Below are positions 12,437 through 13,303 of a stretch of 64,000 nucleotides of DNA, one piece after another. A model generated the notes under the pieces. It worked only from the letters and a program-made list of their open reading frames with translations. It ran no database searches and had not been told where the DNA came from. Position 1 is the first letter of the stretch. Each line of letters opens with the position of its first letter. The stretch is from Escherichia coli (GTDB taxonomy: Bacteria > Pseudomonadota > Gammaproteobacteria > Enterobacterales > Enterobacteriaceae), in NCBI RefSeq assembly GCF_024223415.1, contig NZ_CP100501.1; one strand, given 5' to 3'. Made by a program: the position numbers and the translations under genes.

Positions 12437-12457
12437 TGCCACTGCTGGATAAGCTGC

Positions 12458-13303
12458 GTGAGCTGCAGTGAGCTGCATATTGCCCCGTCAACGTATTACC
12501 ACTGTCAGCAACAGCAGCATCATCCTGATAAACGCAGCGCCCGTGCGCAGCGTGATGACTGGCTGAAGAAAGAGATACAGCGCGTATACGATGAAAATCA
12601 CCAGGTGTACGGTGTGCGTAAAGTCTGGCGTCAGTTGTTACGGGAAGGTATCAGAGTGGCCAGATGCACTGTGACACGTCTTATGGCGGTTATGGGTTTT
12701 GCCGGTGTTCTCCGGGGTAAAAAGGTCCGCATTACCGTCAGCCGGAAAGCCGTTGCCGCAGGCGACCGCGTAAACCGTCATTTCGTGGCAGAACGTCCTG
12801 ACCAGCTGTGGGTGGCTGATTTTACTTACGTCAGCACATGGCAGGGCTTTGTTTATGTGGCGTTCATCATTGATGTGTTTGCCGGATACATCGTGGGATG
12901 GCGGGTCTCCTCGTCCATGGAAACGACATTCGTGCTGGATGCACTGGAGCAGGCGTTGTGGGCCCGTCGTCCATCTGGCACCATCCATCACAGCGATAAA
13001 GGCTCTCAGTATGTATCGCTGGCCTACACGCAGCGGCTTAAGGAAGTCGGATTACTGGCATCAACAGGGAGCACAGGCGACTCGTATGACAACGCGATGG
13101 CGGAGAGCATCAATGGTCTTTACAAGGCGGAGGTAATACACCGTAAGAGCTGGAAAAACCGGACAGAAGTGGAGCTGGCTACACTCACGTGGGTGGACTG
13201 GTATAACAATCGACGATTGCTGGAAAGGCTGGGCCATACTCCCCCGGCAGAAGCAGAAAAAGCTTATTATGCTTCCATCGGAAACAATGATCTGGCAGCC
13301 TGA
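12458..13303 (+). pseudogene. IS3-family transposase OrfB (IS629-like), N-terminal region out of frame
   Basis: Compared with copy 2, about 20 bp (tacggggtcggaccggtatg) are missing near the orfA/orfB junction, producing an in-frame stop after LREL. Confidence 0.7.

Follow-up and report, generated by a model that had tools for sequence, protein, structure and literature searches.

A 20-bp deletion in orfB closes the OrfAB frame and disrupts ALIL stem-loop 2 in a most likely non-autonomous IS629/IS1203/IS3411-group element of Escherichia coli

The closest described relatives of the element analysed here are the insertion sequences of the IS629/IS1203/IS3411 group, found in E. coli and Shigella, which share with it the terminal repeats (TGAACCGCCCCGG...), an OrfA of 108 aa, an OrfB body with HTH_21 and rve domains, and stem-loop 1 of the ALIL pseudoknot. 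The group belongs to the IS3 family, whose members are recognised by 5'-TG...CA-3' terminal inverted repeats, target-site duplications of 3-4 bp, a helix-turn-helix OrfA, a DDE core in OrfB, and an orfB that lies in the -1 frame relative to orfA and is reached by a programmed -1 frameshift. The ALIL pseudoknot (Rfam RF01497) was described for IS3411; the IS3411 ALIL is reportedly the subject of a paper by Mazauric et al. (2008), and Chen and Hu (2006) are said to have described more than one IS629 frameshift product. According to a review, stem 1 adjoins the shift site on its 3' side, and the loop at its apex base-pairs with an internal loop in a second stem-loop, located 44-104 nt downstream (PMC5009743). 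The U_UUU tetramer has been found to be measurably shifty in E. coli (PMC4066793). Defective IS629 elements are already on record, among them truncated copies and a chromosomal copy of O55:H7 whose internal deletion is unique (Rump et al. 2011, PMC3271280). The spread among published IS629 sub-types is 4-5% (PMC3271280), and the present element lies about as far from the intact ones compared.

The stretch of DNA under study (the window) comprises 64,000 nucleotides of the E. coli contig NZ_CP100501.1 and contains two elements of this type. Copy 1 occupies 12056..13345 on the plus strand, where it is bounded by TGAACCGCCCCGG at 12056 and by CCGGGGCGGTTCA ending at 13345, with the TG...CA termini of the family. 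Its left terminal inverted repeat (12056..12080, +, about 25 bp) differs from that of copy 2 by one mismatch, at position 14, and its right terminal inverted repeat (13321..13345, +) has the same last 25 bp as copy 2. Copy 2 is an intact relative of 1310 bp on the minus strand (17184..18493), with orfA at 18113-18439, orfB at 17226-18116, in the -1 frame relative to orfA, and a complete ALIL at 18042-18158. Unlike the 1310-bp members of the group, copy 1 measures 1290 bp and carries a 20-bp deletion, so that its orfB is frameshifted at codon 10 and the body of the gene is found in the orfA frame. With regard to nucleotide identity, copy 1 reaches 95.0% with the best intact E. coli element, 94.2% with copy 2 and 93.7% with an intact IS629 from a STEC O145 plasmid (L007), none of these being the ISfinder IS629 reference. 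By ISfinder convention, isoforms share at least 95% nucleotide identity.

Features of this kind are known, and copy 1 is an ordinary dead element, marked as a pseudogene in existing public annotation. It resembles the O55:H7 and truncated IS629 copies in being an internally deleted, presumably immobile relic of the same IS group. The deletion itself differs from that of O55:H7 strain 3256-97, whose IS629 misses a primer site within orfB (PMC3271280). As argued in the following, copy 1 is very probably a defective member of the IS629/IS1203/IS3411 group, most likely non-autonomous, that has lost both the OrfAB frame and ALIL stem-loop 2, and that represents an allele of single origin spread by plasmid inheritance and recombination.

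In a MAFFT alignment, the two copies of the window show 75 mismatches and a sole indel, a gap of 20 columns in copy 1. A preliminary description, made from the letters of the window, had reported copy 1 to be 20 bp shorter than copy 2 and had proposed a pairwise alignment as a check; the gap falls inside the range it gave (12437-12475), and the two strings that it quoted are each unique, at 12454-12482 (+) and 18047-18095 (-). Its placement of the lesion at the orfA/orfB junction holds as far as this range is concerned and is loose with regard to the actual site, since the deletion does not lie at the orfA stop and instead begins 27 nt past it, within orfB codons 10-16 and within stem-loop 2 of the pseudoknot. 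The junction is located between 12463 and 12464 (+) and is ambiguous by 2 bp relative to copy 2, owing to a TG microhomology; the lost bases correspond to AGTACGGGGTCGGACCGGTA in the closest intact junction (L007) and to TGTACGGGGTCGGACCGGTA in copy 2.

Taken by itself, the comparison of two copies would also fit a gap caused by assembly or sequencing, or 20 bp inserted only in copy 2, and nothing beyond this bare comparison speaks for such a reading. A search for the same 121-nt junction matched 55 places, distributed over 44 independent complete records, as well as two metagenome contigs, which argues for a real allele. Furthermore, thousands of related copies in E. coli contain the 20 bases (5408 records in the 80-90% identity band of a search with the 121-nt junction query), and these bases are part of the conserved Rfam ALIL model. 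Because the relatives and the Rfam consensus contain these bases, and orfB is in frame with them, the difference is a deletion in copy 1 and not an insertion in copy 2. The recurring junction, the consensus and the relatives together refute the artefact or insertion reading, whose probability is negligible.

The orfA gene of copy 1 (12110..12436, +) is intact and encodes 108 aa, ending with a UAA at 12434-12436. Its product contains the HTH_Tnp_1 domain (PF01527, E = 1.3e-12) and differs from the OrfA of copy 2 by a single residue change, V16I. The ATG of orfB, at 12436-12438, overlaps the orfA stop, and in intact relatives orfB is read in the -1 frame. In copy 1, only a stub of this original frame is left (12436..12470, +), consisting of the ATG and 10 more codons before a UGA at 12468-12470. 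As 20 is not a multiple of three, the orfB body (12458..13303, +), which is open for 281 codons from a GTG and retains HTH_21 and the rve DDE core (PF00665, E = 2.9e-28, in the 281-aa ORF), now lies in the orfA frame, behind the UAA. The orfB body of copy 1 is therefore found outside the -1 frame that a programmed shift would reach and, because that frame stops at 12468-12470 and the body is in frame 0 behind the UAA, copy 1 is a defective derivative and not a functional member of the family. A -1 shift at either of the two candidate slippery sites yields only a short tail, and the conclusion is independent of the exact site, since every -1 shift upstream of 12468 meets the same UGA.

The statement in the preliminary description that the frame of the OrfAB fusion transposase is broken was accordingly confirmed, the -1 frame being closed by this UGA and the orfB body being stranded behind the orfA stop. 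An alternative frameshift site that restores OrfAB, which it had named as a finding that would overturn the claim, was looked for, and no plausible recoding route was seen. Its suggestion that copy 1 is probably non-autonomous likewise gains support from the closed -1 frame, from the loss of stem-loop 2 described below, and from PGAP, which independently labels the copy-1 allele as 'IS3 family transposase, frameshifted' (a pseudogene) in pAPEC-O1-ColBM, pGF60-A, pCh101 and others.

Apart from the frame, the deletion affects the stimulator of the frameshift. All 117 positions of the RF01497 model are matched in copy 2, with a score of 116.2 bits; with copy 1 the score is 63.8 bits, still above the gathering threshold of 50, and 29 stem-loop 2 model positions are absent. 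Like the ALIL described for IS3411, copy 1 keeps stem-loop 1 (AGGCGG-AGUUCGA-CCGCCU, 12405..12423, +) and the U-rich motif upstream of it, U_UUU(G) (12396..12400, +), which is located 5-6 nt before stem-loop 1 and at which the Rfam model starts. Unlike that ALIL, copy 1 has lost, with the deleted bases, the internal loop of stem-loop 2 (UCGGACC in copy 2) and the 5' strand of its outer stem. What remains of stem-loop 2 (12464..12487, +) is the apical hairpin UGCAG-UGAG-CUGCA and an orphaned 3' strand, CCCCG. Copy 1 has no internal loop that could pair with the apical loop of stem-loop 1 and, since the 5' outer strand and the internal loop are missing, the loop-loop interaction that defines ALIL is impossible; RNAfold returns stem-loop 1 for both copies and stem-loop 2 for copy 2 only. 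The stimulator is thus lost as well as the reading frame, which makes the 20-bp loss a clean natural knock-out of the orfB frame and of ALIL stem-loop 2.

With regard to the shift site, U_UUU (12396-12399) is the most likely candidate for the -1 shift served by the ALIL stimulator, judging from the geometry, the Rfam model and the review mentioned above. A second candidate slippery site is the A6 run just before the orfA stop (12428..12433, +). The intact IS629 of the STEC O145 plasmid (L007), for which the PGAP annotation includes a programmed frameshift, equals copy 1 over the 140-nt junction region except for the 20 bp AGTACGGGGTCGGACCGGTA. Both the A6 run and the UAA occur in this intact element, so they belong to the usual make-up of the group and do not compensate for the deletion.

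The position of the orfB body in the orfA frame, with one stop between, would allow for a different reading, in which copy 1 is still autonomous and makes a fusion either through read-through of the UAA or through successive -1 and +1 shifts, in this order, that is, a transposase by a frameshift-independent route. The body of 281 codons is still open in most deleted copies and the deleted allele is found in several contexts, and both observations favour this reading, but a UAA followed by U is among the most efficient termination contexts in E. coli. Moreover, no known +1 shifty motif is found in the -1 frame between 12437 and 12467, the last codons of which read CAG UGA G, and transcriptional slippage on the A6 run would enter only the two closed frames. 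The occurrence of the UAA and the A6 run in the intact L007 also argues against an adaptation to the deletion, as do, with regard to autonomy itself, the build-up of nonsynonymous changes after the deletion, discussed below, and the PGAP pseudogene call. Autonomy of copy 1 is hence considered extremely improbable.

The exact deleted junction is carried by 42 of 5426 complete E. coli genomes, as counted at E <= 1e-40 with the 121-nt junction query; of the 55 places, 52 are on plasmids and three on one chromosome (strain 135). A larger figure, 207 records at 99% identity or above, was rejected as a carrier count as it was inflated by short partial pieces. The plasmids are mostly of the ColV/ColBM type from poultry, a set that the deleted allele marks. 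A metagenome scan returned the two contigs already mentioned and no others, and no match was found in the GTDB representative genomes, one per species, of 100,044 species. The lesion that had been described in copy 1 is therefore real and, at the same time, not private to this copy, being a shared and recombining plasmid polymorphism.

The deleted allele is found in at least six flanking contexts, which include the inside of an IS256-family (IS1414-like) element, as in the window, the interval between a Tsh-like autotransporter gene and the eit operon in ColV/ColBM plasmids, which is the commonest, the chromosome of strain 135 (one of the three chromosomal places), pXDL-2 and the two metagenome contigs. 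This variety could mean that the deleted allele still moves, but target-site duplications of 3-4 bp were found neither at copy 1 or copy 2 nor at the other contexts examined, and recombination explains at least one of the contexts. For the autotransporter/eit context, no record had both flanks contiguous, and the IS therefore sits at a mosaic junction. Since there is no target-site duplication in any context and no empty site for the commonest one, transposition after the deletion is not demonstrated.

Copy 1 shares 98.1-99.9% identity with all full-length deleted copies, compared with no more than 95.0% for the nearest intact element, which points to a single origin of the deleted allele. No intact parent with the copy-1 SNPs was found, the best match being 97.5% for a synthetic 'restored' 200-nt query and 95.0% for a full-length intact element. 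Substitutions of the orfB body that are specific to the copy-1 lineage comprise 24 synonymous and 9 nonsynonymous changes, similar to two intact lineages, and most of the divergence is therefore older than the deletion. Among the deleted copies, the orfB body shows about 9-12 nonsynonymous to 7-11 synonymous changes; compared with the 9:24 from before the deletion, this gives a Fisher p of about 0.05-0.09, a value that is borderline and confounded by recombination tracts. Such an accumulation of nonsynonymous changes would be weakly consistent with decay after the deletion. The borderline outcome of this test for relaxed selection and the open orfB body of most copies are among the points that count against non-autonomy.

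Recombination is evident in the related plasmid pCh101 (NZ_CP127318.1), where the locus that corresponds to 17184-18493 of the window holds, at 10153-11442, a chimeric element with the 20-bp deletion. Up to position 1023, 66 informative sites of this element are of the copy-1 type, and from position 1062 onwards 9 sites are of the copy-2 type; the element is thus composed of a 5' piece of 1,020-1,060 bp of the copy-1 type and a 3' piece of roughly 230 bp of the copy-2 type. This mosaic demonstrates recombination between IS copies, by which the deletion has entered the copy-2 locus, and the pattern indicates gene conversion between inverted IS copies as its probable form. Short mosaic tracts are present in other deleted copies too. 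The chimera shows that the defect of an IS can pass to another copy by recombination, and that the same allele with different flanks is no proof of transposition.

Under the interpretation of copy 1 as a defective and non-autonomous element, the 20-bp deletion would shift the frame of orfB ten codons past its start, so that slipped ribosomes would stop at the UGA at 12468-12470, and the same deletion would strip the slip of its ALIL stimulator, since stem-loop 2 is left without its 5' arm and internal loop. We infer that the transposase has been lost and that OrfA, a DNA-binding regulator, would be the only product still made from the intact orfA, in which case copy 1 could be moved only in trans, by the transposase of a closely related element, for instance copy 2. 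The allele would have arisen once, would persist via plasmid inheritance and would pass between resident IS copies by homologous recombination. As the terminal repeats are retained and OrfA differs by one residue, the transposase of copy 2, a possible source in trans, should recognise copy 1; for IS629/IS1203v, OrfAB is known to work on the ends when provided in trans (bioRxiv 10.1101/2023.06.07.543989). In practical terms, IS-typing should leave copy 1 out of the tally of active IS629 elements, and the same applies to assessments of how mobile the neighbouring genes are.

The intact orfA might also have consequences of its own. Expression of orfA alone lowered IS629 excision (bioRxiv 10.1101/2023.06.07.543989), and the OrfA and OrfB proteins of IS3-family elements, IS629 OrfB included, lower transposition (PMC5771124); more speculatively, copy 1 may act as a weak damper of related copies. 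A stronger version of this idea holds that copy 1 is kept as a useful regulator, an OrfA-only locus, with perhaps some OrfB', that damps related IS629-type copies on the plasmid or in the genome. In addition to the published effects, this version can draw on the OrfA protein being unchanged in seven of the eight deleted copies checked, the remaining one (L009) having one G>D inside a recombination tract. Nonetheless, conservation of a short orfA in young copies is expected regardless, the deleted allele is present in only the few genomes counted above, and no sign of selected retention is seen beyond hitch-hiking on successful plasmids, so that retention as a regulator is judged unlikely. It is very unlikely that the deletion lineage is not simply dead and that rare UAA read-through or an OrfA-only role makes it a maintained low-activity or regulatory IS variant, which, if true, could account both for the open 281-codon orfB body and for the number of contexts.

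The flanks of copy 1 are formed by parts of an IS256-family (IS1414-like) transposase gene, with a 3' fragment on the left (11802..12055, -) and a 5' fragment on the right (13346..13804, -), between which roughly 500 bp of the gene are absent. Since these flanks are non-contiguous parts of the gene, a secondary rearrangement is likely. The segment 11802-12018 recurs in inverted orientation at 18492-18708, and these 217-bp fragments of the IS256-family (IS1414-like) 3' end are 100% identical and abut both IS629-type copies. Copy 1 and copy 2 differ by 39 bp at the junction to the fragment, and the junction of pCh101 is 35 bp shorter than the junction of copy 1 and 4 bp longer than that of copy 2, which suggests repeated IS-adjacent deletions or recombination. 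In pGF60-A (NZ_CP172186.1), the plasmid most similar to the window, with 99.9% identity, the counterpart of copy 2 (7896-10511) is split by an insertion of ISCro1, of the IS66 family, and the window has no ISCro1 at that place. Beside the IS256-family fragment next to copy 2, a near-perfect palindrome of 77 nt (18747-18823) matches the Rfam family mir-5984 on both strands with 52 bits, against a gathering threshold of 95; the long hairpin almost certainly matches by chance.

Directly upstream of the IS cluster, at about 11200-11799, lies a toxin-antitoxin pair of the MazE/PemK type, the toxin being a 114-aa ORF at 11455-11799. In near-identical plasmids, a relaxase gene precedes this pair and trbC follows the IS cluster; because of these neighbours, the window looks like part of a large conjugative plasmid of poultry-associated E. 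coli. Several further repeats were observed in the window. Two direct repeats of 300 nt (14264-14563 and 40789-41088) are 97% identical and 26.5 kb apart, the first of them falling where related plasmids have another IS3-family transposase gene, and two of 113 nt (3479-3591 and 6350-6462) are 93% identical and 2.9 kb apart. Additionally, 50305-51083 contains diverged tandem or direct repeats with a period of 222 bp and 73-80% identity, possibly a repeat-containing gene.
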